A stretch of DNA of 64,000 bases from Raillietiella orientalis (GCA_036172245.1 JAYWIR010000012.1:558001-622000); one strand, 5' to 3'. Counted from the first letter of the stretch, positions 29,540 through 63,541 are shown. Notes: generated by a model from the letters alone, not told the origin. Translations and numbers: made by a program.

Positions 29540-30861
29540 GTGACGGGACTCCTTCAGTGGGGAGAACTTTTGAAGGGGAAGGATGCTCCGTGCTGGAAGC
29601 GCGCGCGAGAGCCCGCCGCCGTGAGCGATTGAGCCGCCCGGTGCGCCGACGCGCGCTTCAAGGACCTCGAGTGAGTCGCGGCGGGGTCGCGGAAACGGGA
29701 ATTCTCCTCTATGAGGGGAAGGGAGTCCTTGCGGAGCTCGCGTTGCGGCTGCGGCGGCCGAGATGCTCGTGCGGAAGAGCGCCGCTCTCTCCCGATCGCG
29801 CTCGCGAGCGGTGAGGCGCGCACCTTTTCCCCAATCGCCGGCGAACTTTTGAGTGTTAACCCTGAAGAATCTGTGATCTCTCTCTGTTGTGTAGACAGTT
29901 CGTTGTTCCCTCTTGCCTGGAAGCAGGACGTACTGCTCTTCATCCACTGGGGTTTTCAGTGTAACGAGCGACGGCATCGACTCTCCGGGGGGGCTTGCAT
30001 CTCCGAACTGTGCGGGTCGACGGAGTCCATCCGCACCTGCTTTTGGAATGCGATGCCCTCCAAGAACTGTGGCAGAGGCTGACAGCAGCAGTCCTGCACC
30101 GGGAGGACACCGTCCGAGACGTGTTGCGGCGGTTCTTCGCTCCGAGGGGCCTCTCAACGGGTGCTAAATTGGCAACCATGGGTTTCATCCGTGTCAGTGT
30201 TTTCATATGGGATCGTCACACCGATGATGAGGACACGCTGTCCATCGGAAGCCATCAGGTCTGAGGAGAGGACACTGTTAATTTCGCGATCTGAACGCTC
30301 GATTGCCAGCAGTGAGCATTTATTACGAGTGTTCGCCTCAAGGATGCTCAACTCCGCATTGTGTCTGTCCACTATCTCGTGTCCAGATGCCTCTTGCAAT
30401 GGCAAAGTGCATGCATGTCTCCTTTGGATATGGGTGGTGTTGCCCCACCCTGGGAGTTTAATATTGCCGTTCAGTGTCACCTGAAAGAGAAAGCCAAGGA
30501 GATCACCGGCATCCATCGCCGGTTAATGGACTGTTTGAAGCAGCGGACCCGGTGATCCTTGTCCGCTCACCCCTTTATTTTATTCAATTTTTCTAATCCC
30601 CCGTCCCCGTTCGCTCGTTACTGTTTTGGTGCTTTCTTTCTTTTTATCCCGGTGAATATGGAGCGACGCCAAAGATCCCTGCCCTTCTCACCCACCTTGT
30701 TTTTTGTTGTCCCCTTGTCCCTCACCCGTTCCGAGCTTTCCGTTTTCTCGGCCTGCGTGCCGGTGGATCCTCCCCTACTCTTCTTGTAGTCGTCGGCTGG
30801 GAACAAAAGTTCCCAAGTTGTTTATTCTCAATAAACGCCCCAGCGTGACCGGGTGAAAAAA
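29540..30861 (+). mobile_element. Tx1-like LINE family A, 5'-truncated 3' fragment
   Basis: FPLAWKQDVLLFIHWGFQC and HLLLEC; 3' UTR hairpins; AATAAA(30830)CGCCCCAGCGTGACCGGGTGAAAAAA. Confidence 0.8.
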
Positions 30862-31596
30862 TTCAACGCTGCGATGTCGTTAGCGCGTTGGCGAAATTCA
30901 TCACCGTTCATTCAATGTGGAGGAGGCCGAATCCTTTAAAGGATTCTCTCTATGGCCACTTAGGGCACTCTACGACTCGGATTACGGTGCCGAGCCGTCG
31001 GTTACTGCCTGCGCAGCTGCAAGTGAACGGCAGGGTCATTCACATGTGGTTCGCAAGCAGACCGCGCGCGTGCCTGCAATGCGGCAAAGAGGGGTGTCGA
31101 CCATGGAAATGTCCCTCCCCGAAATGCCGCTATTGCAAGGAAGCTGTGTACGGACTGAGGAAGTTGCAAAAAAAAAAAAAGGAACTACTTTTTGTGCCGC
31201 GATCTCTTTGGCGCGGCACAAAAAATACCCCTGCCCAAAATACGGACAGAAGCACAGTGAAAAAGCGGAGGGGAATGCAGAAGAACTCCAGGCGTCCTAG
31301 CCCGCGAAGCCCTGAGTGCCCGATCTCTCGGCAGGGAAGCCGCAGGAGAACGTGCGCGGGAACTCCGCGCGTCCCGCGGGACCGCGGTCGGGCTCGTTGA
31401 AACCAGACCGACCGGCGGTCACAGCGAAAGTGAGACAAAGTAATCGCGCTAGCGCGAAATCCGCTTCTCCCTCGCCTCCAGCAGCTAGTAAGCTAAAAAA
31501 GAAAAAAAAAAAACCAAGACAAAAGAGCGGGAAGTCCTCCGATCCAGCTTCGAAAGCAGGAAAGCGCACCGGCGTATAGGCATCCCGAGCCTCAAC
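30862..31596 (+). pseudogene. Tx1-like family A ORF1 fragment (zinc knuckles)
   Basis: VHSMWRRPNP...LPAQL...F....ACLQCGKEGCRPWKCP..KCRYCK is homologous to ORF1 at 38673. Confidence 0.8.
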
Positions 31597-34500
31597 AGTT
31601 ATCCCCAATCCGACTCGCGGTGGGGTGAATTTATTTCGCAACTGTCAGTTGTGCAGTACCACAGTGTAATACCCGCTTTCAATCTCACAAGCGCTTTTAA
31701 GTCTCGCTGACTGTCACTTACTTGTCACGTTCAGATTGTGGGAATGGGGTCACTGGGTTCTAGTGGGGATTCCACTCACTTGACAATGTTCTTCAGCCCT
31801 TTGCAGGATGTAACGGTGAGTCAAAGTAGGGATGCGTCCACAACGCCTGATTCCGATTTTCTTTTTTTATAGTCCTTTCAGAATGTCCGATGTCCACGCA
31901 TTCTTCATTCGCGTCCGCATTTTTGCCCTTCTCATCACGATGTTCCTGACGAAAAGTACGATGAAAGTGCTGAGCATTGGGTTGCATCGGGAAACGTCGG
32001 TGTCTTCTTCGAACATCCCCGCCAGGATCTCCATATTCTTCATCCTCTGTAGACCGGCCACTTGCTTCAGATTGACCTAGTCGCGGCGCAGATTCGTGCA
32101 GGTGAGTACGTGGAGTTGGGTTTCCCTGACTCCACAGACCTTGTGGATCTCGTCCTGACTGTCGCCTGACCCGTGCTTCGCCCTCGTGCCGCTCAGGATG
32201 CCTCTGTGAGAAAACATCAGGAGGTCATCTTGAGGGTCGAGTGGAAAATCGCTCGTCCTGACCGTGGTTCCAACCGCAATCAGGTTCACCCATAGTGGCT
32301 GGCGGCCACAGACAGAGCATCGCCCTCATCTGGATTCTTCTTCATTGCTTCTCAGGTGTTTCCTCTGGTGATCAGGCGCCAGCATTCGGATTCCTGATTT
32401 GTCCAGAGCTCTCGATATTTGTGGGTAAATCTTCCCATCATCTTGGTGAGACGGAACAGTTGCATTTTCTGGAGGTCGCCACTGTTGCGAACTGATCGCA
32501 GTCCTTGATGGTCATCCTTGGCCTGTGGAACATTCACTTTCTGGTGTCCCGAGGGACGCGTAGGAAGCATGGGATGATCTTCACCAGTTCGCCTCTTTAC
32601 TTCTAGGCACTATTTTGAGATGTTGGGTGTTCACCAGTGCCTGCTTGCGCTTCCAAGTCGGATCGATGCTTCCCCACTGTCCTTTGCCTATTAGGGCAGA
32701 CACCAGGCCTCTCGAATTGTTGAGCAGCTGCAAGTAGGCTCTGTGCGCCGCATAAGGCCATTCGTCCCATTTGGTGGCAAGATCCAGGATTTGTCGCACG
32801 TCCTGCAGATCCATGGATTGCTCGAGCGATTTCATCCCGGTCCCGCCCTTGTCTCGCGGTCGGCACAATAGTTTTAGCCTGACCCGCGGCTTGAACTCTT
32901 TCCAAAGTATTTTTCGCTGCAGTTGTTCCACCTCCTTGCTCGCCCGCTCCGAAGAGCACCTTGGGAAGGAGGACTCCGTTCCACACGGTTTGCCCTCTGC
33001 TTCAGACAAAAGTCGAGTCGGACGTATTTTACAGCCTTTTCTCTCCTTTTCCCTAGGATTCTTTCCACACATGTTGCGAAGCCGAGGCACGCCAATGTGG
33101 ATTCCCAGGTACTTGATTTCGTCCACTCGGAATCCTGTCTCCGTTAAGGCGGAGAGGTCCAGGATTCCGATGGACAATATCTGGGATTTCTGGGCGTTGA
33201 TCTTCAAGCCCAGACCTCTTTCCATGGACTTGACGACACCTAGGAACGCATGCTGATCCTTTTCGTCCTTCAGGAAGAAGAGGAGATCGTTCGCATACGC
33301 CAGGTGCGTCAGTCTGTCGTCGTCTAGTCTTAGTCCTCGCACACTGCCGCCACAGTGCACCAGCGACGAAACCCCTCCATGTACACCACGAACAGCATCG
33401 GACTAAGGGCATCTTCTTGGCGGATTCCCCTCTTCATCCGGATCACTGCCGTGTCTTGCCCGTTGATCCTGCAGTACTGTCCTTCGAGATTCTTCTCCAC
33501 GTAGTCGCCAAAGTATTCCGGGTAGCCCAGTTTCCTCAAAATCTTCAGCAGCATCCCATGGTCCACGGTATCGAACGCCTTCATATCCGTGCAACCCAGA
33601 ACCAGGTTGTCGCCGATGTAGCGACTGTAACCTATGGTGGCCTGGGCACACTTCACGTTGTCAGACATGCTGCGTCCAGCAGCGCGCAAGTCTGCTTTGG
33701 AGAGATGGCGGATGAGAGCTTCTTGCTCAAGCTATTGGCCCAGATCTTGGCCAACCACTTTGCGTCCGTGTCCAAGATGGAGATAAGCCGCCATTGGGTG
33801 ACCTTGGTCAGGTCTCCGGTCTTTGGCAGCAGTCTTATCCCGCTTTCGTATTACGACTCGGGAGCCTCCGTTCTTGAATGTGAAGCGTCAGCTCGTGAAA
33901 CAACCGCAGGCACGCAGGTACCACTGATAGTACGAGATGGGCACGCAATCAGGGCCTGCAGCCACATCCTTGCGGAGTTCTTCGAGTGCCTGCTTCACTT
34001 CTTCCATGGGGATTTCCTCTTCCAAGGTGTCCTGCTGTTGGCGGGTAAGTCGCTTTTGTAAGTATCGAAGGAAAACCTCCTGCTCACTCCTTGACAGATC
34101 TCGATGTCGAAAGTGGGAGGTGGAATGCTGATGGAATGCCTCCGCTATTTCTTCCGACGTCTGTCTTAGCTGGTCTCTGCGCTGGATGCTGAACACATCC
34201 GACGCCAGAATCTTCTCTTTCTGGACTCCTACTACCCCTTTGACGTTTTGGAAGACGTAGCGGCTCTCGCACGAATTCCAGAACCTGAAGCGGGAGCGAT
34301 CTTGGATGTTTTGCTCTCGGTACGCTTCCTGCCTCATCTTCCTGTACCGAAATTTCTCGTTGCAAATTACGTGAATGGTGTGCTTCAACTTGTCTGAGTC
34401 CTCGAGCCTGCGGCTGGTGGTATCCCGCAGAATTCCTGGTGACAAGAAAGCTTTTCGAACCAGGCAAGCATGCAAATGAGCGCTGCCCTGGTGCGTCCCT

Positions 34501-37240
34501 GCTCCCGTAGGTTCACGGTTTTCAGGGTGAACCGCAGCAGCTAGTGGTCTGAGAGCAGAATCTGCGCGTCTCGGAATCCCGGCATGCTGTTGTCGATGTC
34601 CTGACTGTAGAGCGCGCGGACGATCGGCTTGTGGTTCGTTGTTGGCCACAGCAATCCGAACTCGTCGAAAAGCTGCCGACACGTCAACTTTACAGCGGTA
34701 TTCCTGGACTGGGTCGTGATGCCGGGTATATTCAGATCTCTCACGACGACGACGATGTCCTTTAGTGCAAACATGCTGTGCGAGAGATCCCGCACAGCCT
34801 CTGCGCACCGATGCTTTTCCAGGTGGGGTCCGTACACGTTCACCAGGAATAGGTGAACTGTGTCGGGCCAGGACATCCGAACTCCGACGATGCGGCAGGG
34901 CCACGGAGAAAAGGATTTCAGGACGGTGTGCGCGATCCTGTTCTTGATGAGGATCGCTACGCCCTTGGTCTGCCTCTCTCCCGGACTCAGGAACAGCTGG
35001 CATCTAGTCGCCGTTCGAGTTTGCAGCAGATCTGGTCGCCCGTCTCGTGAGTTTCTTGCAGGCAGATGATGTCATCACGCTCGATAAAGCGCATGATCCT
35101 TCGCTTCTCCTGGTTAAAGATCTCATTCATGTTCCAGGAGGAGATCTTGATGCTCCTGGCGGAAGACAGGAAAGATGCCATGGGGAATTATTTCTTGCTT
35201 CTCGTCTTTTTCTGCTTGGAAGACGACGTGGGCTTCCTCGAAGCAGGAGTGTCCTCCCCCGTCTCGCTCGCCGACTCCACGTAATCCGTGGTGTCTTCGA
35301 ACTTTGCCGCAGGGGCAAGTATCCTGAACTGGAGCTGAAGCTCTAGTTGCTTTAGCGTCAGGAGGCCAAGGCCGCCGTCCCGACACGAAGCGCACAAGTC
35401 CTTAAACCGGGACTTCCTTTTGCTCCAAAGGGCGATCGTTGTCCAGATCGGAGTCCAGAAAAGGTATGCTAGTCCGTCGCAGGCCCTGTTAGAGAGAATC
35501 AGGGACTCCTCAACTTCTGATTCCCATTTGTCACAGCACTGAGTTCAAGCCGCGCGGAAGCCTCGGTATTGCCAGAGAGAAACGAGACGAAGAACATCTT
35601 GTTGGTCAAACCTCCAAAAGAACACAGCGACAGCAACCGACAAGCGGGATGGGAGTTGCCCTGCAATATACTGCAGGAGTGGAGGAACTCCTCGACGGCT
35701 TCAAGACGAGCGAGTTGGTGGACGGCGTCACTCCTTGTTCCGGGCGAAGAAACTCCTCCGGTGGTAAACGGCCTGCTCGATGGGCCCTGCAAAGAACTCG
35801 CGGTCCCTCCCCTGTGCATGGATACCTCTGTGTTTCCTTTTCCTTGGAAACAGGATGTTCTGCTGTTTCTTCGCTGGAGAATCCAGTGCGACCAGCGCAG
35901 ACACCTGGTTTCCGGGTTATTTGCTTTTCCGAGCTGTTCAGGGAGAGGTACGATCGACTCATTTCCGCACCTCCTGTTGGGCTGCAGTGCCCTGAAGGAC
36001 ATCTGGTAAAGACTCGCCCCTGTGATTCGTCACCTAGAAGGTCCCCCAGCCTCGGATTTGCTTAGGCATTTTCTTCATGCAAGGCAAGCTGACAAGAGGC
36101 GCCGTGATTTGACACCCGGGTGCGCCGGGGCGTTCATGATTCTTACAGGGATCGACGAAGCTAAAAGTTCCACCGATTCTAATTATTACACTCAAAAAAA
36201 AAAAAATGAGGCCGGCGAGGTCCATCACGTCCTACAAGAGGAAGGAGCATGGAATAAACCTACTTTTGTTGCGTTGGGGAAGGCATCTCCTTGTTGGCAT
36301 CTTCCATCTGTTTTTCTCCACGAGGGTAAATCGCACGCAACCTTTTCTTTTCTTTTCTGTTATATTTCTTTTTTTGTTCCTGCGCGCTCTAGAAAGGTCT
36401 GCTGGGTCTGAGCGGGCAGAAGAATTCAGTGTGCCGCATCTGTGGTCCACAATATCGGGTCACCTCCTCTTCAGGTGCCACGATTTGAGACAGTGCGTGC
36501 AGAGCTTTGGGCTCCTCGCATACCAGAGGTCGACGGGTTTACCACCGACTTCCAGTCTGTGAAGAAGCCCTTCCCCTTCGAGGACGGCCATGCGCGCTCC
36601 GGATTGACGGCTGATCATCCACTGGAAGTCGGGGTAGATGCTGGACTTTGACGATCCACGCACTGTGGACAGTGCGTGGATCGTCCTGTACTGCTAAAGT
36701 GAGAGAATTACCGCTTCTTTTGTCATCCTCACCGTAACTCCGGTGAGGTGCACGACCTTGTTGCGGTCCTCCGTCACTGGAAAGAGCTTGCGCCTTCCGA
36801 TTGTGATCGGTGAGTGATGTCTTTGGGCAAGGATCGCTTCCTTGCAAGCCGCCCTCACTGTCTGCCCACCGCTCAGAATGGAGAGGGCGACGAGCTCCTC
36901 GTGTTTTACTTGCAGCTTGTGCAACTCCACCGCGAAGGAACGCTCTACTGTGAGATTCCTACCTTGTTCCTCAGGCACTGGTTGTAGCTCGAGAAGAGGT
37001 AGACCCTGGCCTCTACCGCGGCCGCAGTCGAGGGTGCCACAGCAACAGCACTCCACAGAGTCCTCCTGGGGGACGTCGATTCTTCCAAGGAAGGGACGGA
37101 GTCCACTTCCACCGTCCAGGGTGCTGGGGCTTTCACTCCTGCTCCCTGGGCTTCACCGGTTGGGCCACTTGGCATTCCAGCCATCGGGCCGCCGTCAAAA
37201 ACAACCACACACCAAACTAAACAGCAAACTCGCGGAGCGC
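31597..37240 (-). mobile_element. Tx1/L1-like LINE family B, near full length but decayed, interrupted by a family A fragment
   Basis: ORF1 remnant with CTHCLKSWH..R; ORF2 from 35181: SWNMN, CLQETH, NVYGP, SDH, AAGPD, DMKAFDTVDH, GIRQEDALSPMLF, AYAND, YLGI, CGVRETQLHV; 3' AATAAA (31630-31635) followed by a CCCCA..TGGGG hairpin. Confidence 0.85.
35500..36205 (+). mobile_element. Tx1-like family A ORF2 C-terminal fragment inserted in family B ORF1
   Basis: SVFPFPWKQDVLLFLRW..QC and FPHLLLGCSAL. Confidence 0.8.
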
Positions 37241-37630
37241 GCCGATGCACCTCCGACCGGCAGGCGCCGTAATCACCGCGAGATGCTGCATCCGTGCCAT
37301 CGTCACAGCCCACTCCGTGGAGTCTCGTTCGCAGCGAATGGAGGCCATTGCGAATGGCAGCTGCCTTGACGAGGACGGCTGCGAGGTGGCCTCATCTGCC
37401 AGAAGATGTCTCCAGGGAGATCGCTACCATCTACAGCCGCTTTTAGGAAGAAAGGAACGATTAAAACCAAAGACCCTCCCGTTTCGGACTTTCCTAAAAG
37501 CCGACCTGCGTGCTGGTGGTCATCCCCAGTGAACTTCTTGGCTCTTTTGCACCTTCACTCAGGTATTCTTGGCTTATAGTTCATCTATTTCCTTTAAATA
37601 AATGCTTCAGAGTGACCAGGTACAAACAAA
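37240..37630 (+). mobile_element. Tx1-like family A extreme 3' fragment
   Basis: CCIRAI..AH and WPHLP; CCGAC-CTGCGT-GCTGG hairpin; AATAAA at about 37598. Confidence 0.7.
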
Positions 37631-38199
37631 CAAACAGGATCTTCAAAGTAACGTGAGCAGATTCCTGAAGTGCATTTCCAACGGAAACATCCACCAGCCC
37701 TGACTGCCGTAGCAGGAATCGGCGCGCAAGAATATCGATCAGGATCAGTAGCGTCCGATTACCGACCAGAGAAAAAACCGGCGGCAGTCAGTGGAAGTCA
37801 GCGCAATTCCCGTTGCCACCCGACGCCGAGTATCCTATTCCTGTCGTTGATAGAAAGGATCAGGGCATCATTCTGAAGCATCAAGGTATCCATGACAGGA
37901 GGAGGAAGCAGGTGATGTGACTCTCGAAATACAAGAACCCCATCCATTGGTTTCCAGCGTGGACAAATTGCTCAGTCACTAACTAAAAGTACAGTTCATG
38001 AAGAACCAACACAAGACAGACCTGAAGCGAGTAGCCACCCTGGAGAAGAACAGTCTGTCCCGCTTATTTTGGAAAACAACCGGAGGAGGGCAAAACGCAT
38101 GATGAGTCTCAGGACGGCATGGTCCAATAGCATCCACCGGAACTTACTTAGCATCCACAAGCCACACAAGGAGGTAGAATTATTCGTGTTCTCTAAAAG

Positions 38200-38340
38200 A
38201 GGATTTGACAAGAGCAAACACATGAATGTGTGCGACTCAACGTTGGATCTCGAAAGGAACCGACATTGTGGCATTTCAAGAGCCATGGTTCATTTCTCTC
38301 TCATTTTCAGTCATAAACTTTGATATGAACTACGTCCGAA
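38200..38340 (+). pseudogene. APE endonuclease fragment of another LINE clade
   Basis: DIVAFQEPW motif (cf. DI..IQEPW). Confidence 0.35.
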
Positions 38341-38629
38341 TTTCCAAGACCTCAGCAACCGCTTTCGAACCCTCTGGACTCGGCTTGCCACTCTCTCAGA
38401 GCACAACTTTCGAAGATGCCGGACGAACGGCAACAATCCCAGAGAACAGAACTTGCAAAAGAAGACGGCACTCACCCGCATCCCGATTGGGACGACAGCT
38501 ACCCGTGATATCCGCGCGCTGCAGACATCATCCCGACCACGAGCACCAATTGCAGCTATGAAGTCAAATCGCACCCAGCAAGCAATCCACCTTTCTTCGC
38601 AAACTCACTGCGAGAAACGGGACAACAGG

Positions 38630-40852
38630 TATCAATGGAGATGCACCAGGAGATAGCCTCCAATCAGCGTACTTGGAACCAAGTGTCAAGCAGATTGTGA
38701 CCAGTCTCACAACAGCACATCCGGAGAAAGCAGAGGTGCCGCCGTTGCCAAGGCAGCGGCAGCTAACGGAGCGCTCCCGGATGAGGCAGAGCTGCGGGCA
38801 TACGCTCCCGGAAGAGGCAGAGCTGCGGGCATACGTAACCCAAGGATACAAGCCCGCGCTCTCCTACAAGGTAAGTGCCTTGTATACGGATGGGACGGGA
38901 GACCGGCTCTGGGGCGAGCTGGAACGCGTCGGGGTCCGCGAGGACGACCTCCTGGCGTTAATGCCTGTGAGCGCGCTTGGGCATTGGGAGGTGAACTGCA
39001 AGGATGCAGCCCTCATCCAACGCCTGCTCCAAACGCCCCTGAAAATCAGGGGTAAGGAGGTCGTCCCCTCGGCCCTGGACCAGTCGTTCGTGGTCCAACT
39101 CTCGGCCATTCGGCCGGGAATCGCCGACCGCGACCTGATCGTTGCATTGGAGGCGTTCGCCACCGTGCACGCATTGTGGAGGCGCGTGAACCCCGTCAAG
39201 AAGGTTCCGCTCCTCTCTTGCGGACTCGACACGGCGAGCGTCACCATGGACAACCGGAGGCCGCTGCCTTCGCAGATCAACCTTGGCGACGCCGTCGTTA
39301 TTCTTCGGTTTGCCGGACAAACCCCGGCTTGCGGCAACTGCGGCAAAGAAGGCCACCGTCCGCGGAAGTGCCCCACACGCATTTGCCACTACTGCAAGGT
39401 GCTCGGCCACTCTCTCAACGAGTGCGCCGAGCTGAAACGTAAAAGGCGGGCGAAGAACGTGCCCGCAACATCCCGTCCGCGCCGAATCCATCCGCCGTCG
39501 GGGAAGAAATCCGGCGCGAACGAGGATTCGCAGCTGAGTAGACCAAAGTCCGATTGCGCGAGCGTGTCTGGGAGCAAAGCTCCCCAAAAGTCCGCGCAAA
39601 AGGGCAAAAGGCTTCTCCAAGCTGCCCAAAGCAAGCCCCGAGCGACCCAGCCCGCCGAAAACATCGGGCGAAACTCCTCCGTCCGTTCCCGCTCCGGAAC
39701 GAGATAGTGGTGGCACGCTCGAGAAGACCACCGGAGAGCTCAAAAAGGGGTCGCGCGCCCCTCCGCCCGCGAAAGGCAAGCCGTCCAAGGCGAGCCGATC
39801 GGCGGAAAAGGCTGCAAAGCCTCGCGCGACTTAAAAGAATCCCACCGCTCTGCCCGCACCTTCCGGTAAGGAGGTGCAAGAGGCAGTTGTGGCGAGTGAA
39901 AAACTGGCCACCATCGCCGAACAGGAGGCCTTGGAGCGGATGCAGAGGACCCTGCAGACCCTCGCGCCCTGCCGAGGCAAACCAGACAACGGCGAGGCTG
40001 GCTCGACTTTCATTGGGGAGAAGAAGAAGGAGAGGAAACCACGCGATCCTTCCCACTTCCCCATCATCAAGGAAGGTGAGGGGAAGAGGCAGCCCCGCGC
40101 GCCAAGGAAGGCGCACGAAAAAGCCTCCGCTGCCGTTGCGCGCGCCGTCGCTGTCACCCGCGGCGGGAGGGTAGCTGCCGACGCCGCGACCCCGCAAGGG
40201 GGATCGGCGCCGAAGGCACCCTCTACGAGTCCTGGACCAGATCCGAGCTGCCAGCCAAAGAGACGGCAGGCAAAACGCCTGCCGCGCGCGCGGAATTCGG
40301 ACTCCGAGGTGGAGTCCGAGGGCAGTGCAAAGGCTCGCCAAGCCCCGGCTAAACCCATGGCTGCGAGCAAGCCGAAACTTGCCAGGCAAGAGCCTGATGC
40401 CGGGAACGGTTCCCGATGCTCCTCGGAGCCCGAGGCAATGGTCCTAGACTCCACCGAGCCAGCCGCGTGCTGCACGGCGGAGACAGGGTGCGCTTCCGCT
40501 CCCCAATCCGCCGTGCTCCCGGCTGATGCCTCGCCGGACAGTGCGAGGAACGTACCTCCATGTCTGCAGCCGTAATGCGAGGGGTCGCATCTTCTCGTCG
40601 CGTCCGTGTGGCGTGTTGGAACGTCAACGGGCTGCAGGACAACGAGAAGAGGTGATTGGTAGCTAGAGTCTTGCGCAACTTCGATCTGGCCATTGTGCAG
40701 GAGATTCACGCTCTCTCCGAACAGCAAGCAGCCGATCTAGCAGGTCGCGCAAGTGGGACGCTCCATTGGAGGTCAGGCTTCCAGAATACTGCGGAGTAGC
40801 ATTCCTTGTCCGGGGCAGGGTGGCGGGGGTGATGCGGAACGTTTGTTTCGAC
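38630..40852 (+). mobile_element. Tx1-like family A 5' half (ORF1 + start of endonuclease), truncated by an inverted insertion
   Basis: 40360-40852 closely matches 43410-43900; sequence breaks at GTTTCGACG|TTTTCACCCGG. Confidence 0.85.
38673..39707 (+). CDS. Tx1-like ORF1 (gag-like; RRM-like region plus two CCHC knuckles), frameshifted into a low-complexity tail ending at 40575
   Basis: CGNCGKEGHRPRKC and CHYCKVLGHSLNEC; upstream WEVN...L...L.I.G; followed by an ORF2 start with WNVNGL. Confidence 0.88.
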   Translation: MEPSVKQIVTSLTTAHPEKAEVPPLPRQRQLTERSRMRQSCGHTLPEEAELRAYVTQGYKPALSYKVSALYTDGTGDRLWGELERVGVREDDLLALMPVSALGHWEVNCKDAALIQRLLQTPLKIRGKEVVPSALDQSFVVQLSAIRPGIADRDLIVALEAFATVHALWRRVNPVKKVPLLSCGLDTASVTMDNRRPLPSQINLGDAVVILRFAGQTPACGNCGKEGHRPRKCPTRICHYCKVLGHSLNECAELKRKRRAKNVPATSRPRRIHPPSGKKSGANEDSQLSRPKSDCASVSGSKAPQKSAQKGKRLLQAAQSKPRATQPAENIGRNSSVRSRSGTR

Positions 40853-41440
40853 GTTTTCACCCGGTCAAGCCGGGGTGTTTATTAAAAAACTTTCGGTATT
40901 TGCGGTACAAGACCCCGCTGCGGCCAATAGCACTAGGGAGCTGCCGGGTGGTCGGTGAGCAGACCGACTTGACACTCCATGTCAGTGGAGGGGGATGGGA
41001 AAAACAAAAAGAAAAATAAAGGAAAATTGGGAAACAAAAAACCATAGTTCTTTGGAAGGCCGGGAAGGGATCACTGTCCGCTGCGTGGAGTTTCCATCCT
41101 TTTCAGGATGCCGACGAGGTCCTTCTGCAGACTTCTCAGGTGGGACCATCGAGCTGCTATTCGCAGAAAGCGAGCTGCATACTCCATGACATCCCTTCCG
41201 TTAACATCTTCTGCTTCGTCGGCTCCACTCCAAGCCGCCACAATACCGCGGATGCAGCTGAGCGCTGCTACGACAGCGGCTGGCTGCAGGGCGTCCCGCA
41301 CGAAGAAAAGCCGAAAAACGTCTCTGGGAGGGCTACCTTCCACGATCCCTAGGGTCGTACCGAAACGTTCCCAAATGGGCCGGAGGGCAACACAGTCAAC
41401 TAAGAGGTGCGGGGCGGAGACCACCCCACTGACCACGGCG
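40853..41440 (-). mobile_element. Tx1-like family A 3' fragment, inverted
   Basis: PHLLVDCVALRPIW and WSHL; 3' UTR hairpins; AATAAACACCCCGGCTTGACCGGGTGAAAA. Confidence 0.85.
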
Positions 41441-52898: not shown

Positions 52899-55217
52899 TT
52901 TTCACTTAGTTGCCCCTGGAGTTTATTTCAATAAAAAATAAAGCTACAAAAAACAGGAAGCACGCTTCCTTGTCTCGTAAATAAAAAAAGAACAAAGAGA
53001 AGTTCAGCTGTAGAAGACTTGCTGACTCCCAAGACAAAGAAGAAATTGCCCGAGCATTGAGGGAGTGAGGGAACGAACAAATAAATATTTGGTGGGAGGG
53101 AAGGGAAAACTGGAATTGCTACCCATCTTCTAAATTCTCCGCGCGATGCTGCTGATCTCTCTGATGACTTCTTGTTTCAGATAAGGCCACCTGCATGCTT
53201 TCCTTAGGTTGATCCTAGCGATGCAGGCAGCCTCTCTTCGCCGTCCGTGCGACTCCAACGGGTATCAGGCCATGAGAATGCCGCGGACGCGACACAAAGT
53301 CGGGATGACGACGGCAGATGAGAGCCCGTCTCGGCTGAAGAGATGACTCAGCAGATCAACGAGCGCATTTCCAGGTGGAGAAGAGTCGGTGCACAGAAGA
53401 CGGATGACGTCGCAGTTCATCAGCAGCCATATGGGGAAGTGATTATCTTCCTCATATGGCACTCCCCAGACACACTTCCTCTAGTCATGTGGTGCATGCG
53501 CTTGTTGCAGAAAACACCGCAATGCAAGCACAGCACCGCGACGTATTGCCACTGGAGAGGAAGTACAGAGGTGTTCAAACACATGGAAAAAACGGAGTTC
53601 TTCCGGGAACACACTGAAAGTTTTGGACCACCGGCTAATTCCCTTCGCCTGCATGCAATGCGTAGCCGCTTCGGCCAGCACTGTCGTGAAGCACCCTGCT
53701 AGAAGTTTTTCCACTCGCGCTGTGCTGCAGGAGTGCTGATGCTCCCACCTAGCCGGTAGGCAACTGCCATTGCTTTCCCATAGGGAAGACAGCGCTGCGT
53801 CCAAAGGTGCCGCGGATGTACGCGTTTACTTGGTTGGCGCGTCGAAGATTCTCTGCAGGGACATCCTGCCAAACTGCTGAATCGGAACGAGATCTTCCGG
53901 GACAAGGCTGGTGAGAGAACCCATGTGTCCAAAGACTTCTGCTGCCAGGCATTCAGGTTCTCAGGGAGGCAGGAGATCCACTAGTCGGATTCCAGAAGGC
54001 TGGAGAGCCGCTTCATAGGAAACTCCAAGAGCTTCATACCTTTTTGGTTGCCAAAAAGCAGAAATAGAAAAGCAGAAACAGATAGTCCTTCACAACCAGA
54101 TCTCACCGCAAAATGTGACGCGCGGGGAGACATCACTGCTGGTTTCATGCACTTTCCATCAGGGCGAGTCTTCAAAAATTGAGCTGCGGATGTAGCCTCT
54201 CCAACATAAAGATGCCAGGTCCGGCATCCCTCCGAGGCGCAGCAATTTCCTTGAGGCGGAAGCGGAACGTCCCAAAGGACCTTCCTCTAAAGTCCGTCGG
54301 CCTGTTGTCTCGCCTCAGCGGAAGGGGAACATTCAAAAACAAGCGGTCGGAGGAGGAGGCGACAAGAGTTCCAGATCAAGGCCGGCTACGGCAGGTAGAA
54401 CCTGCCTTCCAGAAACGGTCAAGAGCCCTCTGTGCTTCTTAAAAGTAGCAAGACTACGTTTTTACAGAGCAGAAGTCGCCAACTGGTACGCCAAGGCACT
54501 TGAAGTACCTGCCTGTAGGGATTTCAAGGAGGATGCAGTCCGGCTGCCCCCCCAACAACTCTCTAGCCGGTGCGACCGTGGACTTCGTTCTGTTGACGCT
54601 CAAGTCAACACCCCGGAGTATCAGCTCGAAGAATCCCTAGAGCTTCGTCACCGGGGTGGATCTGGAAACAGGAGAAGCAGATCGTCAGCATAGGCCGCCA
54701 CGGACAGCGTGCGCAAGCAGGACGTCGGCAGATTGACCACTGTGTTTGTGCCTGCTCAGCACAAACTCAAAGTAGGCGCCGAACAAGATGGGACTCAGGC
54801 TGTCACCTTGCCTAATTCCTCGGCACACCGGCAGGCCGAAAGCGTGGTGACCGCTAAAACCGATGTTTATTCGTGCGTCGTGCCATGGCGACCGAAAGTA
54901 CTGCAGCAAGCAGAGTGGAAGTCCGAGGAGCTCAAGAAGTTCCCGAAGGAGCTCCTGGCTCACGCATTCGAATGGTTTCTGCTGGTCCAGCCACAGCACG
55001 TCTTTGTAAAAGTTTGTTTTTTTAATAGACGCCCCGGCGAAATCCGGTTGAAAATCGAACGGTTTTTGCAAGTCGACCAAGATCGAGAGCACCAGGTTCC
55101 TCCTCCTGTCTGCGAGTACTGTTCCCCGAGCCCTTCCAGGATATCTTTTCTCTCGAAGAACAGGTTCGACTCCATGCTTTTGCGCAGAACAGCACAGATC
55201 TGCTCCGGGCTGATGAT
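52899..55217 (-). mobile_element. Tx1-like family A copy (RT to 3' end), decayed
   Basis: SPEQ, DLQKPF, GIRQGDSLSPILF, YADD, LPLQWQYVAV, LLMNC; degenerate AATAAA-hairpin end near 52900-52927. Confidence 0.82.
54983..55054 (+). mobile_element. 72-bp Tx1 3'-terminus-only insertion with 15-bp TSD
   Basis: Flanked by TCGAATGGTTTCTGC (54968-54982) and TCGAACGGTTTTTGC (55055-55069); ends AATAGACGCCCCGGCGAAATCCGGTTGAAAA. Confidence 0.85.
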
Positions 55218-56810
55218 TATCACCGTTATACCAAGGTATTTATTACAAGAGTAATAAAAGTACATGTTGCTGTAGAACTGTTGGTTTCACTGCGCACAAT
55301 AAATTTGCCGAGGATCGGTACGCAGACCGGCAAAGTCCGCTTCGGCAGCGTGGGGGAAAGGAAACAAAAACAAAAAGTAAACAAACAAAATGGGGGAGGG
55401 GACAATCGAGGAAGCGATCACGGTACGTTGTCAGGCGTCTCCGGCAGGTTCAGGATGCTGGCAAGTTCTGTCCGGATAGTGCCCAGGTGGGTCCATCTCT
55501 AGGCGGTCCTCAGGAAGATTCGCGCCCAGTGGATGGCACCTCTTCCATTTCAGACTCTTATTCCCGCGTTCCAGGATGTCACAATTCGGTACACGGAGCA
55601 GAGAACTGCTATGGACGCGGCTGGCGGCTGAGCAACGAGGCGTTTCCAAATGTCCCTGGGGCCACCTCCCGGAATATTCAGTATAGTCGACAGACGATCC
55701 CCAAAAGGTCCAACAGCAGGTGCGGGAGGGTCTCCTTCCCGCATCTGTCACACTTAACGTCTACTCTTCCCCGAGTCCAGTGGTGAAGGCGCGCTTTGCA
55801 TAGAATTCCCCCATGCAATACCAGTAACGCCGACTCCTGCCTCTTGAGGAGGAGAGTTGCACTTTTCCAGCATTCTGGGGGCAAATTCATCTCCTCCGGA
55901 GGAATGCCGAGCAGCTCTCCTCAGCGTACAAGTCCATGGGGTGGGACACTCAGGGTCGCAGCGTCCATAACTTTCCGAGTTGCCCACGCCCCAAAAAGTT
56001 TTGTTTTTGCTGCTTTACAGCAAGTCACTTCTCACCTTGCCGGGATTACACTGTCCCTTGCGTCCCTCGGGGAGAGCAAGGAGAGTAGACGAGGCCCACC
56101 GCATCTTCTTCGGGTTGCGAACGACCTCCTCCAAGGAATTGCGAGTATTGAGGCCTCGCTGTAGGCAGGCGTTCCCCGCCTCTCTCGCAGCATGGATCTT
56201 TCCCCAGGCGAAGACTGACTCCTGAAGGCAGGCAGTGCATCTCGCGAACTGGCAGGAGATCGAGGTATTCTTCAAGGCAACCATCTGGCGGAGTTCGTTT
56301 CCGCAACGCCTCAGCAATCTCTAGCGAGCGACGAGGAGGCGTGAGTTCCTCGCAGCCGGCTGCGCTCTTCGCCAGTAGCCGTGCTGGTGTGCATCAGGAC
56401 GTTGTCCATAGTTTCGCCGCAAAGGCGAGTCTCCTAAATTGGGGCCGACGTTGCATCCTCTTCAGCGTAAGGAGGCCCAGTTCGCCATCTCTACCTTTTG
56501 GAGACGGTCGGACCACGCTTCTGCTGGCAGAAGTCCCCCAACGGAACGCCAAGGTACTTCAAGTGCCCGCCCGTTGGGATCCCCAAGCGCATACAGTCCG
56601 GTCCACGCCGCACCAACTGCAACGATGAACGACGTTTCCCTGTTCACCTCAAGTCCGGTCCCGCGACTGAGCAGCTCGAAGAAGCGCTCGAGGGCAGACG
56701 CCGGGGGGGACCCTGGGAGCAGGAGCAGAAGATTGTCTGAATAAGCCGACACGGCAGGCGTGCCGGAACACGAGCTCAGCAGGGTTACCCTGCCAAGCTC
56801 GTGTCCCTTG
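55218..56810 (-). mobile_element. Tx1-like family A copy (RT motif C to 3' end), with internal deletion
   Basis: AYSDNLLLLL, CDRCGKETLPHLLLD; CGGT-CTGCGT-ACCG hairpin; AATAAATACCTTGGTATAACGGTGATAA. Confidence 0.82.
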
Positions 56811-58395: not shown

Positions 58396-59742
58396 TCTCA
58401 ACCGGGCGCGCCGGAGCGTTTATCGCTAAACTATCCAGGAACAGAGTTCCCGGACAAAGGACACAGAAGAAACGAAGGGGGGGGATCCCCGACAGGCAGG
58501 TCGGTAAACCGAAAGTCCGGAACGGGAGGGAGGGGACCACAAATACACATATAAAAAATAGAAATAAAGATTTGGGGAGGGTAGGGGACAGGGGTCTTTG
58601 GTTTGGGACGTTCCTTTCCTTCAGAACTGGCTATGGATGCCGGCGATCTCTCTCCTCACGCTCTCTGGTAGGTGGGCCCACTCGGCAGCCGACGACATGC
58701 TTGCGCTGGCTAGTCCGGTGGGCTGACGAAGGATGGCCAGCTTCTCCAACTCTCGGTGGGCCTTGTCGATGGCTCGAGTGCAACAGACCGTTGCGACCAC
58801 CGTACCTAAGGACAGGCCGACTGGCGTGAAGAAGCGGCGCATCAAGTCTCTCGCGGTGTCCCCCTGGTGCAGGAGAGCTGAGGCCAGCCTCCGTCACAGT
58901 CCTTGGAGGACACCGCAGTCCAAGAGCAGGTGCGGGGGCGTTTCCTCTTCCCCGCACCGTTTACAGTTCGGCGAGACAACAACTCCCCCGGAAACACGGT
59001 TCGTCCGCTGGTTGGAGTGAAAACCCCAATGCACCAGCATGATGACGTCCTGCTTCCACGAAAGGGGGAACACGGAAGTGTTCAAACAAGAGGGAGGGAC
59101 CACAAGTTCTTCGGAGGCACACTCAAAAGTTCGCTCCACCGAAGGAGTCCCTTCGCGTTGTTGCGAGGCGTGGCGGCGTCTGCCAGCTCGCTAGTCCTCC
59201 AGCCGCCAATAGGTCGTGTTGTTCCTGCGATGGTGCAGGCGACCTCCCACCCTACCGGTAGGCAGCTGTCATCTCTTGCCCTGAGGGCTGACAGCGCGTC
59301 GGCGAGGGGCGTGACGGCCAGGCGGGTCCACTTCTCCTGGCTGTTGCACACCTCATCCACCGTGCAGTACGGGGAGAGGTGAGCGCAACGGAGTTCCAAG
59401 ATGGAAACATCCTGCTGCTTTGCCCAGACATGCAACGGTTCCTGCCGCCAGGCGACAAAGTTCGTTGGGTGGCAGGAGATCCATGCGTGGGCTACCAGAG
59501 CCGGTATAGCGGTTTCCAGGGGAAACCGAAGCTTCTCGTGGCGCGCTCCGTATGTGGCCGGAGCGACAGAAGGCCATCGCTGCCTGTGCAGCGCCGCTGT
59601 AGCAGGCGTGCGGGAGCACACCACAGAGTGGACCAATGGTTGGCGCACAGAGCCAACATTCGAAGCTGCACCTGCAGCTCGATGCTCTCCAGCGTCAGGA
59701 TGCCCAAGCCGGCATCCCGACGCGGAGCTGCCAAGTCTTAGG
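58396..59742 (-). mobile_element. Tx1-like family A young 5'-truncated copy with 11-bp TSD
   Basis: Near-identical reverse complement of about 46070-47410; CTTAGGCTGTT at 58385-58395 and 59743-59753. Confidence 0.92.
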
Positions 59743-59769
59743 CTTAGGCTGTTGGTTTCCAAGTGAGCA

Positions 59770-59860
59770 TTTTGTCGGCACTCGGCGGCGCCGGGGAGTT
59801 TGTTGTAAAAGTAGAAAAAGGAAAAATGCATTCGCAAATAGTCAGGAAAAAACAACAACG
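59770..59860 (-). mobile_element. Tx1-like 3'-terminal stub
   Basis: Minus strand reads T-rich tract, then AACAAACTCCCCGGCGCCGCCGAGTG. Confidence 0.5.
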
Positions 59861-60199: not shown

Positions 60200-62400
60200 C
60201 TTTGAATGTGAGTTTGATTCCAAAACGAATGCACGTTCTTCATTCTCATTACCATTCCATTCATCTTCATCACTATATCTTCCTCAATCTTTGATATCTA
60301 TATAACTATCATCCGTCTTCAATCTCCCCATTTTCAAGCTCATTTGCCATTGCCTTCCTCACTATCTTTAATTTTCCTTCTAATCTTGGGATGAAAACAT
60401 ACTGGATCCGTTTCAGGAATATTTCAAGACAAGCCAATGCTACATGATTGGTTTCGTCCCAACCTTTAACCTTGTCTTTTTCAAATTACTAACCATTTAA
60501 TTACATAATTATGAACAACTGCTTTGATTCTCATCGAATTTCTAAAACATGTTACTCAACGTAAGAGTAAAAATTTTACTCCTCCGGATTTTAGGATTAA
60601 CCATTTCTAATTCAAGTTATCACCCACTCAGCCTACAGCTAAACTTCATATACAACTCAAAAATATTGGATTCTATCAAATGAAAACTATTCATCCTGAA
60701 TAAGAAACCGTAAATATGCTATAAAGTATTTTTCTTCAGACATATGCATAACACTCCTCTTCCTAATTATATTAATTACCACAACACAGCACATATTGCC
60801 TCTATCCTTGATGAACTCCCTTACTTGGCCAATCTGCATCACCAATCTGTTTACGATTAATGCCCTCAAGATCTTCAACCCCGCAATCACTACTGTTACA
60901 CTTCTTGAACCTCTCTCCATGAACCATACTCACAATCTCTATGCAGCATTCGCTGAACCACAATGGACAATGAAGATCTTTCAACTTCCTGTACTTCAAT
61001 TCCGCCTCTCACCATCACCAAAAAATTCAAAATGATCAGCGAGACCCCATAGCCAAATTCCATCTCAGGGCTTCCGTCCACTTCTCTTGACCAATCATAC
61101 TAACTTTCCATACCCATACAAGACCGTAGGATGGGAACCGACACTTCAGTCCCACTCCACACTGAATGTCAAATGGTTCCTCCCTTGAAAAGGAAACCCC
61201 TACGATCCCCATCGCCCTGACATTGGCAACTATCCTTAAAAACATGCACTCTGCTCCCGTTCATACAGTGCATTTCGCAAATTTTGACTCCCTCCATACC
61301 CATGAATCACCAGTCCTGCATTCGAGAATAGCAGCGGCTTGAATACATTATGAAGCAAGAAATGAGATCATTGCCTTCTTGCCCGGTCCTGGACCTGTTG
61401 ACCTTATACCACGAATTGCCTCAAAATTGAATAAACAATAAGTTTCTTTACAAAGACTCCCATCCTTCCCATAATTCCTGAATATACCATCGTTAACACA
61501 CCATAATACACCATAAAACGATATCAACCATCCTAACCTCATGAAACCGAGTCAGCAAACGCACCCTTTGCAGTAAACAAAGTCGGTGGAAGAACCAGTG
61601 GAGATTCCGGCGTAAGTCCTGCCGCCGGTGCCGGCAATCAACCACGAAACGTCGACTGTGCCCTCTCAGCCACTCTCATTCGTGCAACCCAAAAGCACCG
61701 ACCGTCGATCCTTGGAAAGTTGTAGCTCCAAGGATTCTCCAATCCAACTTTCATTCCTGAAATTCCATGCCCAACGCAAGCACTCGACTCGCACAATTAT
61801 GCCACCGAAATCAGGGCCACGACTTTTCTAAAAAATTACCAAGCGATAAAAAATAATCCCCAGTCGCCCTAATTCCAAAGTGATGCTGGCAATCATTTCA
61901 CTCGCAATCTGTAAAGCCGTCTTCCCTACAAATCAAAACACCAAAAATAGGAAACGCTTCTTTCTTCGCTCCACATACCTTCAACCACAAACGTGACTAA
62001 CAGACACTAGCAGAACACAACCCACTCCGTAAGGTGAACTAGCCATGTTTCCACCGTCACCTCCAGCATAATCATAGGGACTAATCAATAATTCACCTTA
62101 TTACTATCCATCACTTCGCAATCCCCCTTTACCTAACAGCTTGAAACCATCCATCACAGACTGTGCTACTTCGATCCTCAGCTTCTCTTCTCCCGCCATG
62201 ACACTTCCCAAAATTTCGTCCTCAGAGAAAGCCACGAAGGCCGTACTCAACAACCGTCTCAAAATCCCTTTGCATCATCCCGCAGCACATTTCGCAATCT
62301 TTGCCAACTGAAAAATCTTCCAGCCTCCCAATCCTTTCGTGCTAAGAGGGTTCATCGCCATTTAAAGATGGAAACCAATCGGGCTTACGCAGATCTGAAC
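60200..62400 (-). pseudogene. Heavily decayed RTE-like LINE RT
   Basis: NDGIF, LFNFEAI (cf. FIDF.KA), EPFDIQCGVG....PS (cf. F.I..GV.QG..LSP), GINRK and F.AYL in RT order. Confidence 0.35.
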
Positions 62401-63541
62401 TCAAATCACCTAGGATTCTGAGTCCGGCCAAAGATCCCCTACATCTCACGGGTGCTGAATTCAACGCCGAGGTCTCAAACTTCCACATCAACTGGAACTC
62501 TCCGTGAAGACCACGCTGTTATCCCTTGGCTCACACTCTCTTTGCTCCGAGGTCTTCACTGCTTTTCAACGGATCCCTTAACCACGGAGATTCCTTCTTC
62601 ATCTTGCTCCCCGGAAAGCATCATCTCAAAATCCTATCTTACCTCAGTTCCTTGAGGCAGCGCTGTCTGCCCTCAGGACGAGAAATGACAGCAGCCAACT
62701 GGCGGGGTAGGAGTTGTCTGGCCAAACTACACAAATCGAGAAACTCCTTGGAGGTTGCAAGACGAGGGTGAATGCTGCCACTCTTCGTTTCCGGGCGAAG
62801 AGGACTCCTTCGGTGGAGTGAGCTCCCCGAAGAATTCGTGGTTCCTACTCTGTGCGCCAATATCACCGTGTTCCCGCTCCGCTGGAAAACACAGGATGTC
62901 CTCCTGTTTCTAAACTGGGAATTCCAGTGCAGCCAGCCTAGGCACCTGCTTTCCGGGGGAGCTGCCTCCCCGAACTGTCTAAGGTATGAGGCGATGGAAT
63001 CGTTCCCGCACCTCCTGCTGGACTGCAGTGCCCTGGAAGGCATCTGGAATAGACCAGCTTCGGCGCTCCAAGGTCACCAGCAAGGACTTACTGCGTCTTT
63101 TCTTCCCGCAAGGAGGGATGGGGGCGGGCACTGTGATCGCAACTATCTGTTGGATCCGCGCCAGCGTCGCAACCCGCTCCGTGGTGGAGTCTGGTTCGCA
63201 GAGAAGGGGGGCCACCAGCATGGCAGCCGCCTATACGAGGACGGCTAAAAGGTGGCCTCAACTGCCAGAAGTCATTAGAGAGGTTGCCACCTTACGCAGC
63301 CGCTTCTAGGAAGAAAGGAACGAATAAAGCCACAGACTCCTTCCATCTTTTGTATTTATTTGTAGTTCTCTCCCTCCGTTCCTTACTTACATAGAAGCTG
63401 AACTGCGTGCCAATGATCATGCTCAATGAAATCCTGTTTTTTTTTCTCTTATGGCATCTCTTGTATTTAGAGGACACTGTCATCTTTTGACTTGTGGTTT
63501 TCTTCGTTGTAAATAAACGTCCTGGCGTCGCCGGGTAAAAA
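62400..63541 (+). mobile_element. Tx1-like family A 3' fragment
   Basis: GLLRWSEL, FPLRWKTQDVLLF, FPHLLLDC, WPQLP; AATAAACGTCCTGGCGTCGCCGGGTAAAAA. Confidence 0.85.

Follow-up and report, generated by a model that had tools for sequence, protein, structure and literature searches.

How L1 elements choose their template is debated. Poly(A) is held to suffice for mammalian L1, whereas in most other LINE clades a 3′ stem-loop is read; signals of this structured type have been described in L2, R1, and R2 LINEs and in some plant and algal L1 lineages. The window analyzed here, a 64-kb (64,000-nucleotide) stretch of DNA, contains several diverged LINE 3′ ends, and the question that it raises is whether a hairpin with a CTGC-type hexaloop in their 3′ untranslated regions (H1) might serve as a signal of this kind. 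The sample consists of eight copies of H1 from this single window, which the tree divides into roughly five lineages (A to E). A terminal hairpin located 3′ of AATAAA is referred to as H3. The coordinates of all features are compiled in Table 1.

Table 1. Hairpins, terminal boxes, and reading frames of the LINE elements, with positions counted from the first nucleotide of the window
Feature	Lineage (copy)	Position	Strand	Description
H1	D	30748-30763	+	TCGGC-CTGCGT-GCCGG
H1	C (C1)	37501-37516	+	CCGAC-CTGCGT-GCTGG; one G.U pair, one A.C mismatch
H1	B (B1)	40951-40968	-	GTCGGT-CTGCTC-ACCGAC; 6-bp stem, loop CTGCTC
H1	B (B2)	42233-42254	+	AAGCCGGT-CTGCGA-ACCGGCTT; 8-bp stem; -12.5 kcal/mol
H1	A (A1)	47302-47317	+	CCGAC-CTGCGT-GTCGG; 3′ UTR of best-preserved element
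H1	E	55316-55329	-	CGGT-CTGCGT-ACCG; 4-bp stem
H1	A (A2)	58489-58504	-	CCGAC-CTGCCT-GTCGG; near-duplicate of A1
H1 remnant	C (C2)	63398-63413	+	Loop CTGCGT kept at 63403-63408; 2 of 5 stem pairs left
AATAAA + H3	A (A1)	47383-47408	+	CGCCC..GGGTG, or CCCGG-N5-CCGGG; then short A-rich tail
AATAAA + H3		30830-30855, 37597-37622, 42320-42345, 63512-63537	+	Same box
AATAAA + H3		40858-40883, 58399-58424	-	Same box
AATAAA + H3	F	48248-48273	+	Same box
AATAAA + H3	E	55219-55244	-	Same box
Terminal box	G	52902-52927	-	Degenerate
Terminal box		36113-36138	-	No H1 upstream; probably very short or rearranged 3′ fragment
Terminal box		55024-55049	+	No H1; similar case
Terminal box		59779-59804	-	No H1; similar case
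ORF2	A (A1)	43575-46421	+	Apurinic-type endonuclease and reverse transcriptase; Exo_endo_phos (PF03372), RVT_1 (PF00078)
ORF2, C-terminal part	A (A1)	46541-47182	+	After frame break; C-x2-C..H-x4-C motif
ORF1-like frame		38562-39704	+	CCHC zinc knuckle (zf-CCHC, E 1.1e-4)
ORF2, N-terminal fragment		40527-40852		Downstream of ORF1-like frame; 84% identical to A1

The elements belong to the L1 superfamily (L1/Tx1 group), as indicated by the endonuclease, the reverse transcriptase, the C-terminal Cys/His motif, and the closest similarity to L1 ORF2p. The best solved-structure match of the A1 ORF2 was human LINE-1 ORF2p (4.5e-42), with R2 proteins at about 1e-15, and many of the database relatives carry PF13966. 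The nearest database proteins were unnamed and about 27% identical, and the protein atlas returned only generic endonuclease/reverse-transcriptase clusters. The 3′ UTR of A1, counted from the ORF2 stop codon, is ~225 nt long. Zinc-knuckle ORF1 variants are called consistent with Tx1 in one report (PMC5203782), and this ORF1 type is also recorded in other L1-clade elements (PMC3956500). No sign of site-specific insertion, a Tx1 feature, was found: three 8-mers that match by chance were all that the ten 3′ flanks had in common. Several copies lie head to tail behind the tail of another copy.

All eight H1 sites listed in the preliminary description were verified in the window and read as claimed; the A.C mismatch and the G.U pair in C1 had gone unmentioned there. 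The sites mark the sense-strand 3′ ends of eight diverged L1-superfamily LINEs, among which A1 and A2 are 94% identical. The reported placement upstream of AATAAA held, and the distance from loop to AATAAA, previously given as about 70 to 100 nt, is 75 to 109 nt (coordinate subtraction, eight copies, AATAAA downstream of H1 in all). The tail starts at least 26 nt further 3′ beyond this interval; H1 is not tail adjacent.

Hairpins with a CTGCNN loop and a stem of at least 4 bp are not rare, with 24 in the window compared to 12.4 ± 3.4 in Markov shuffles. What sets H1 apart is therefore its homologous position and pattern of change rather than the motif itself. A covariance model, which the preliminary description had suggested, was built from the same eight copies and run on the window with filters off. 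It recovered the eight LINE ends (27.5 to 32.7 bits), while no other site scored above 12.3 bits; the three H1-less terminal boxes in the window look like short fragments.

The compensatory stem changes proposed earlier were borne out. Across the eight copies, 35 of 40 cells of the 5-bp stem were paired, and four of the five pairs had changed on both sides, giving seven such double-change cells. The covariation score was reached by none of 500 column shuffles, and controls in which the stem was slid along the alignment showed only 17.5 to 52.5% pairing. In a tree-aware simulation of ten independent, variability-matched sites on the tree of the copies, at least seven double-change cells arose in ≤0.9% of runs, and jointly with at least 35 paired cells in ≤0.2%; for settings with at least 490 conditioned runs, these values were ≤0.32% and ≤0.2%, respectively. 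An unbiased scan of the last ~550 nt yielded 3,615 candidate 5-bp helices, four of which had at least 85% pairing, and H1 ranked first with the most double changes of these four. Read from alignment and tree, three compensatory events appear to be separate: the closing pair would have changed from C-G to U-A between clades A/C/D and B/E, a G-C pair may have become the A-U of lineage A by way of the A.C found in lineage C, and a C-G pair seems to have become U-A within lineage B.

Loop constancy was likewise confirmed. CTGC is invariant in all eight copies, over a tree whose branches sum to 3.09 substitutions per site. Only 28 of 770 alignment columns are invariant, and no invariant run reaches three letters apart from CTGC in the H1 loop and ATAAA in the poly(A) signal. 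Mean pairwise identity peaks at H1 (0.49 to 0.58) and at the terminal box (0.55 to 0.69), with most of the other UTR at roughly 0.2 to 0.4, and RNAalifold, applied to a plain MAFFT alignment of nine UTR ends, predicted H1 and H3 only. The CNNNGN pattern ascribed to the loop stands for six of the eight copies, in which the alignment places a C at residue 1 and a G at residue 5 that could pair as in a pseudo-triloop; the G is missing from A2 (CUGCCU) and B1 (CUGCUC). H1 is the minimum-energy fold in five of eight 30-mers. Thermodynamic stability was dropped as evidence, as the folding z-scores were unremarkable (+0.96 to -0.83 in six copies, -1.6 in B1) save for B2 (-2.9).

The preliminary description had stated that the otherwise divergent UTRs keep one hairpin. 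H1 is indeed kept in eight 3′ ends, but H3 is kept in more lineages, and the LINE 3′ ends of lineages F (at 48248) and G (at 52927) have no H1. AATAAA with H3 is the best-conserved block of the UTR, at least as well conserved as H1 and across more lineages. H3 adjoins the tail directly, a positional feature of stringent LINEs, without covariation beyond shuffles. In two comparisons, 314 and 421 out of 500 shuffles paired equally well, so that the H3 structure is only putative. A (TGTAA)n-like tail repeat was absent from these LINE ends. Two further hairpins were considered and set aside. A hairpin that would sequester AATAAA (TTTATT..AATAAA, 7 to 8 bp in D, E, G, and B2) is not clearly enriched, because 12 of the 83 AATAAA sites in the window have one. 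A GGAAC/GTTCC hairpin (H2) 13 to 45 nt before AATAAA, present in A1 and D and resembled by hairpins in F and G, varies in position and is weak also since 6-bp hairpins are expected by chance.

On the basis of these patterns, H1 could well be a selected cis-acting RNA stem-loop whose loop is recognized by the element's own protein, most likely ORF2p, a reading that we hold tentatively and short of calling it probable. The stem of 5 to 8 bp, free to change in sequence while pairing, would form a helical platform for a hexaloop with a fixed CUGC at its first four positions, and a protein recognition site is the most likely mechanism for such an arrangement. Binding by ORF2p would direct copying to the element's own transcript (“stringent” template choice) and would thereby affect retrotransposition. 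H1 may act jointly with the terminal box, AAUAAA-CRCCC..GGGUG-(A)n, which would define where the transcript ends and probably also where reverse transcription starts.

Recognition by ORF2p, or its reverse transcriptase, is suggested by analogy with LINEs of other clades. A 3′ stem-loop is recognized by the ORF2 protein in UnaL2 (eel, L2 clade; PMC1636434), in ZfL2 (zebrafish, L2 clade; PMC4176376), whose ORF2p binds its own stem-loop, and in SART1 (silkworm, R1 clade; PMC5135761), whose stem-loop sits in the center of the UTR, an exception to 3′-terminal placement. All three resemble H1 in being 3′ UTR hairpins with a variable paired stem and conserved loop letters, and SART1 also in its central position. 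In contrast, the present elements belong to the L1 superfamily, H1 lies ~100 to 135 nt from the element's end, its 5- to 8-bp stem has no bulge or internal loop, there is no tail repeat, and no SINE or other non-autonomous partner with H1 was seen in the window. Among L1-clade elements, the monocot LINE1-1_ZM group and L1-1_CR of Chlamydomonas were described as stringent, with compensatory stem changes (Ohshima 2012; PMC3472496). They share with H1 a conserved 3′ hairpin with a compensatory stem and conserved loop letters. However, their hairpin occupies the last ~45 to 50 nt, has a UCU loop, and is common to SINEs, whereas the present hairpin has a CUGCGU loop, lies inside the UTR, and comes from a host that looks like an animal, judging from an NRF domain. 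PMC5135761 also describes an L1 with a position-specific 3′ UTR stem-loop, proposed as an ORF2p handle, with an 8- to 10-bp bulged stem in the last 50 bp; the basis given there is positional conservation among close copies, while that for H1 is covariation across diverged lineages. H1 is thus probably a further instance of an already known type of signal, the LINE 3′ stem-loop. A likeness to the hepatitis B virus epsilon (CUGUGC) and IRE (CAGUGN) hexaloops is one of loop pattern only, as RNA and host are unrelated. These are pseudo-triloops in which residues 1 and 5 pair and residue 6 is bulged, and that of epsilon is part of a site bound by reverse transcriptase (PMC1636360).

H1 might instead be selected for binding ORF1p during packaging, or a host factor in 3′-end processing, export, stability, or translation, with the reverse transcriptase reading H3, which we consider possible but rather doubtful. 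H3 directly precedes the tail, as the stem-loop of UnaL2-type LINEs does (PMC5135761), it belongs to the UTR block with the highest conservation, and it is present in the H1-less lineage F and in short 3′ fragments; the neighboring ORF1-like frame encodes a CCHC zinc knuckle, a nucleic-acid-binding motif. The distance of H1 from the element's end and the copies without an intact H1 (absent from F and G, stem lost in C2) were also counted against H1 as a handle for stringent recognition. However, covariation above shuffles was found for H1 and not for H3, and position alone is no bar to H1 as a handle.

It is unlikely, in our assessment, that H1 has no function and that shared descent of a GC-rich palindrome, together with chance, CpG decay, and wobble, mimics compensation. 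Such an origin would fit a hairpin picked by eye in only about five lineages, the CTGCNN hairpins expected by chance (about 12 per window), and the finding that shuffled 30-mers fold as well as real ones. CpG decay in CCGG stems would preserve pairing in three of four double-decay outcomes, and such decay alone could yield an apparent double change like that of C2 at pair 9/22. The two main double changes, as read from the alignment, nevertheless lie outside CpG sites, and the simulation, the first rank of H1 in the unbiased scan, and the invariance of the loop over the whole tree also argue against this explanation. A role in the other strand or as DNA seems quite improbable; this would cover first-strand cDNA, antisense transcripts, and a palindromic site in DNA. 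Pairing is no poorer in the antisense than in the sense strand (37 versus 35 of 40 cells), and 33 of 40 cells are Watson-Crick pairs that form in either strand. Yet the loop is asymmetric and its orientation relative to ORF2 constant, covarying arms of free sequence would fit poorly with a sequence-specific double-stranded DNA site, and we know of no antisense-strand or DNA hairpin role for LINE cDNA. The sense RNA is presumably the strand that folds.

H1 offers a clear example of a 3′ UTR hairpin whose stem covaries while its loop is fixed, in a lineage of the L1 superfamily that belongs to an animal and has very short A tails. As an RNA signal for template choice, H1 would support the view, argued until now from plants and algae, that stringent recognition is ancestral in the L1 group, and would offer a compact, well-defined RNA on which binding and retrotransposition could be assayed; with eight copies in one window, it is for now a good lead rather than a result. 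It is conceivable, if somewhat unlikely, that template choice in this animal L1-superfamily LINE relies on a two-part structured 3′ signal, with an internal CUGCGU pseudo-triloop hairpin resembling epsilon and a terminal hairpin before the very short A tail. In that case, stringent recognition would also be old in the animal L1 group, and mammalian L1 would have lost it later and come to use poly(A) only, in the way that has been proposed for plants.

Relatives of these signals were also sought outside the window. The Rfam search suggested in the preliminary description found no relevant family: the only gathering-score match in the window was 5S rRNA, and scanning the UTRs of A1 and B2 by E value gave nothing relevant. 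Exact-pattern scans for the terminal box had no match in metagenome, viral, or prokaryote genome contigs. An ORF2-guided scan of metagenome contigs yielded 72 loci, all 20 to 29% identical over long matches, with no H1 match in them at E values up to 1. By eye, no conserved kissing partner of the loop (ACGCAG) was apparent among its matches. One DNA run (X1) contained 0.14 of the sampled words, and no RNA run was listed with them. The X1 contigs over positions 30000 to 48500 were mostly diverged, with 387 of 598 pieces less than 90% alike, and gave no linked variants at H1. A depth spike of X1 at 36170 to 36786, considered as a possible high-copy SINE, sits on a low-complexity A/G-rich run.

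Between 29.4 and 63.5 kb, the tblastn map reveals a nest of LINE copies on both strands that are diverged, mostly 5' truncated and frame broken. Among solved structures, the top match for ORF2 of A1, the best-preserved copy, was human LINE-1 ORF2p (4.5e-42; R2 proteins, about 1e-15), and a C-x2-C..H-x4-C motif is present near its C terminus. The closest proteins in the large database shared only about 27% identity with it, and PF13966 is present in many. The A1 ORF2 domains, the structure match, the Cys/His motif and these database relatives place the elements in the L1 superfamily. An ORF1-type frame with a CCHC zinc knuckle also occurs in the nest; this ORF1 type is described as consistent with Tx1 (PMC5203782) and has also been reported from other L1-clade elements (PMC3956500). 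No common target sequence was found among ten LINE 3' flanks. Several copies are arranged head to tail: a 5'-truncated copy begins at 42364, at most about 20 nt from the terminal box of B2, a copy of lineage F is placed after A1, and A2, at its truncated 5' end, follows a separate terminal box at a distance of about 40 nt. These positions suggest insertion into the A-rich tails of older copies.

All eight sites at which the preliminary description placed a 3' untranslated region (UTR) hairpin with a CTGCNN loop (H1; copies A1, A2, B1, B2, C1, C2, D and E) read as it stated. The loop lies 75 to 109 nt upstream of AATAAA, in the LINE sense strand in every copy. The stem of C1 contains one G.U pair and one A.C mismatch, while C2 retains the loop and two of five stem pairs. 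When a covariance model of the eight copies was searched unfiltered, it recovered all of them (27.5 to 32.7 bits). As nothing else exceeded 12.3 bits, the window holds no further H1 copies. Two of the copies, A1 and A2, are nearly the same (94% identity). With H1 masked, the last ~550 nt give a tree of topology ((A1,A2),(C1,C2)), D, (E,(B1,B2)) with a total length of 3.09 substitutions per site, so that the eight copies represent about five lineages.

CTGCNN-loop hairpins are frequent in the window (24, versus 12.4 ± 3.4 in shuffles), and shuffled 30-mers fold about as stably as real H1, with the exceptions of B2 (z = -2.9) and B1 (z = -1.6). The case for H1 therefore rests on comparative evidence. 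Its 5-bp stem is paired in 35 of 40 cells, and both-side changes affect four of the five pairs (7 cells). In 500 column shuffles, the covariation score was never reached and the paired fraction was reached twice; sliding the 3' arm by 1 to 3 columns reduced pairing to 17.5 to 52.5%. Because column shuffles ignore relatedness, ten independent sites were also simulated on the H1-masked tree from a perfect-stem root, and runs with the observed variation were kept. At least 7 double-change cells arose in at most 0.9% of kept runs across all 15 settings (at most 0.32% in settings with at least 490 kept runs), and in combination with at least 35 paired cells in at most 0.2% of runs.

As a look-elsewhere control, all 3,615 candidate 5-bp helices with loops of 3 to 12 columns were scored in the 770-column alignment. 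Only four reached 85% pairing: H1 (35/40 cells, 7 double-change cells), a helix in the ORF2-coding region and two registers of H3, the terminal hairpin after AATAAA. Consensus folding of nine UTR ends (plain MAFFT alignment, RNAalifold) predicted H1 and H3 and no other helices. Of the 770 columns, only 28 are invariant, and just CTGC (loop letters 1 to 4) and, in the poly(A) signal, ATAAA form uninterrupted invariant stretches of at least three letters. Read on the tree, the alignment points to three independent compensatory events: C-G to U-A at the loop-closing pair (clades A/C/D versus B/E), G-C to A.C in lineage C and then A-U in lineage A, and C-G to U-A between B1 and B2. A fourth, in C2, was left uncounted because CpG decay alone can yield such a change in a CCGG stem. 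The observation is thus confirmed and is stronger than the preliminary description could show. The ORF2-coding helix, second best in the scan (34/40 cells, 6 double-change cells), lies in the C-terminal coding part and may be explained by codon constraints, as conserved Ala..Cys-Cys codons overlap it.

H1 is not, however, the one hairpin that the UTRs keep, as had been proposed: it is retained, but so is a terminal box comprising AATAAA and H3 (AATAAA-CRCCCCGGCG..CCGGGTG), to which a short A-rich tail (about 4 to 7 letters) is attached. A degenerate box pattern gave 11 matches (0.29 expected). The box is present in all eight H1 copies (in a shorter form in E), in lineage F and in three short fragments, and is degenerate in lineage G. 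The box can fold as H3 in two registers, with 74% and 83% of cells paired; no covariation beyond shuffles was found in either, because the sequence is so constant. Mean between-lineage identity peaks in a box just upstream of H1 (0.52), in H1 (0.49 to 0.58) and in AATAAA plus H3 (0.55 to 0.69), and is about 0.2 to 0.4 over most of the remaining UTR. The order is stop codon, pyrimidine-rich tract, conserved box and H1, variable stretch, T-rich stretch and AATAAA, H3, and short tail. The T/C tract, some 80 to 100 nt long and situated between the ORF2 stop and H1, occurs in every lineage and is conserved in composition but not in sequence. Downstream of GGGTG, tails are very short or mixed with bases other than A, in contrast to mammalian L1, where poly(A) is long.

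Recognition of a 3' stem-loop by the ORF2 protein is established for UnaL2 (PMC1636434), ZfL2 (PMC4176376) and SART1, in which the essential stem-loop is reported to be central in the UTR (PMC5135761). In the L1 clade, a monocot lineage and a Chlamydomonas element have conserved 3' hairpins with compensatory changes and SINE partners, and a case was made that stringent recognition is ancestral (Ohshima 2012, PMC3472496). For human L1, a 3' UTR stem-loop has been proposed (PMC5135761). H1 thus joins an already known kind of element, the LINE 3' stem-loops. In a limited search of open-access text, a covarying hairpin in the 3' UTR of a non-mammalian animal Tx1- or L1-type LINE was not found described, which is not proof of absence. 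The likeness to the CUGUGC loop of HBV epsilon, a motif shared with the IRE, was correctly stated (PMC1636360); with C1 and G5 in six of eight H1 copies, it is an analogy only.

A stem kept paired while its sequence is free to change, capped by loop letters that never vary, marks a hairpin that a protein reads. We tentatively favor, with slightly less than even confidence, H1 as a cis-acting element in the RNA that the LINE's own machinery, ORF2p most likely, would use as a handle, in concert with the terminal box. This box would define where the RNA ends and probably also where reverse transcription begins. The earlier interpretation of H1 as an ORF2p recognition element appears plausible and is partly supported. 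Against it, the 3' ends of lineages F and G lack H1, H1 is internal (about 100 to 135 nt from the 3' end), and it was seen in LINEs only, with no non-LINE carrier within the 64-kb window.

A hairpin under selection could instead serve ORF1p or a host factor, with H3 as the reverse transcriptase site, which we regard as rather unlikely. Pairing is as good in antisense (37/40 cells) as in sense (35/40), which also counts against the ORF2p interpretation and singles out neither as the folding strand; action of H1 in the opposite strand or as DNA seems very improbable. Beside the simulations and the helix scan, a hairpin without function, common as the motif is, appears improbable.

Two further UTR hairpins were seen. 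AATAAA pairs over 7 to 8 bp with an upstream TTTATT, with stems extending in differing directions, but this is not clearly enriched (12 of 83 AATAAA sites in the window). A hairpin between H1 and AATAAA varies in position and is absent in B, C and E; the A2 version was excluded by the scan, which allowed no more than one G.U pair. For run X1, word depth reaches 1220 in bin 36170-36786, and a repeat family was rejected as its source; the spike lies instead on a low-complexity A/G-rich run. Outside the nest, an uninterrupted 5S rRNA gene precedes the first LINE copy by about 1.6 kb. An NRF-domain frame, which resembles part of a host gene (a fragment or an exon), points to an animal host.

Positions of features in the window
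Feature	Positions	Strand	Details
NRF-domain frame	14265-14954	-	nose resistant to fluoxetine, N-terminal domain, E 1.1e-10
5S rRNA gene, complete	27727-27845	+	Rfam RF00001, 87.3 bits, model 1-120 of 120
A/G-rich run	36342-36379		loose ends on this run
ORF1-type frame	38562-39704	+	upstream of ORF2 fragment of same LINE family
A1 ORF2 frame	43575-46421, continuing 46541-47182	+	Exo_endo_phos, RVT_1
H1, A1	47302-47317	+
H1, B2	42233-42254	+
H1, D	30748-30763	+
ORF2-coding helix, A1	47012-47026	+	GCAAC-N5-GTTGC (lineage A)
ORF2-coding helix, B2	41943-41957	+	GCAGC-N5-GCTGC (lineage B)
Pyrimidine-rich tract, A1	47186-47290	+
Pyrimidine-rich tract, B2	42110-42210	+
Interval from B2 terminal box to next copy	42345-42364	+
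Terminal box, separate	59779-59804
Interval at A2 5' end	59739-59779	-
Interval where lineage F follows A1	47408-47576	+
Tail	47409-47415	+	ATAATCA
Tail	30856-30861	+	AAAAAA
Tail, C1	37621-37636	+	(CAAA)3
TTTATT/AATAAA hairpin, D	30819-30837	+
TTTATT/AATAAA hairpin, E	55239-55258	-
TTTATT/AATAAA hairpin, G	52922-52942	-
TTTATT/AATAAA hairpin, B2	42311-42328	+
H1-to-AATAAA hairpin, A1	47358-47370	+	GGAAC/GTTCC
H1-to-AATAAA hairpin, D	30798-30815	+	GGAAC/GTTCC
H1-to-AATAAA hairpin, F	48175-48193	+	AGAAC/GTTCT
H1-to-AATAAA hairpin, G	52955-52970	-	GGAAG/CTTCC
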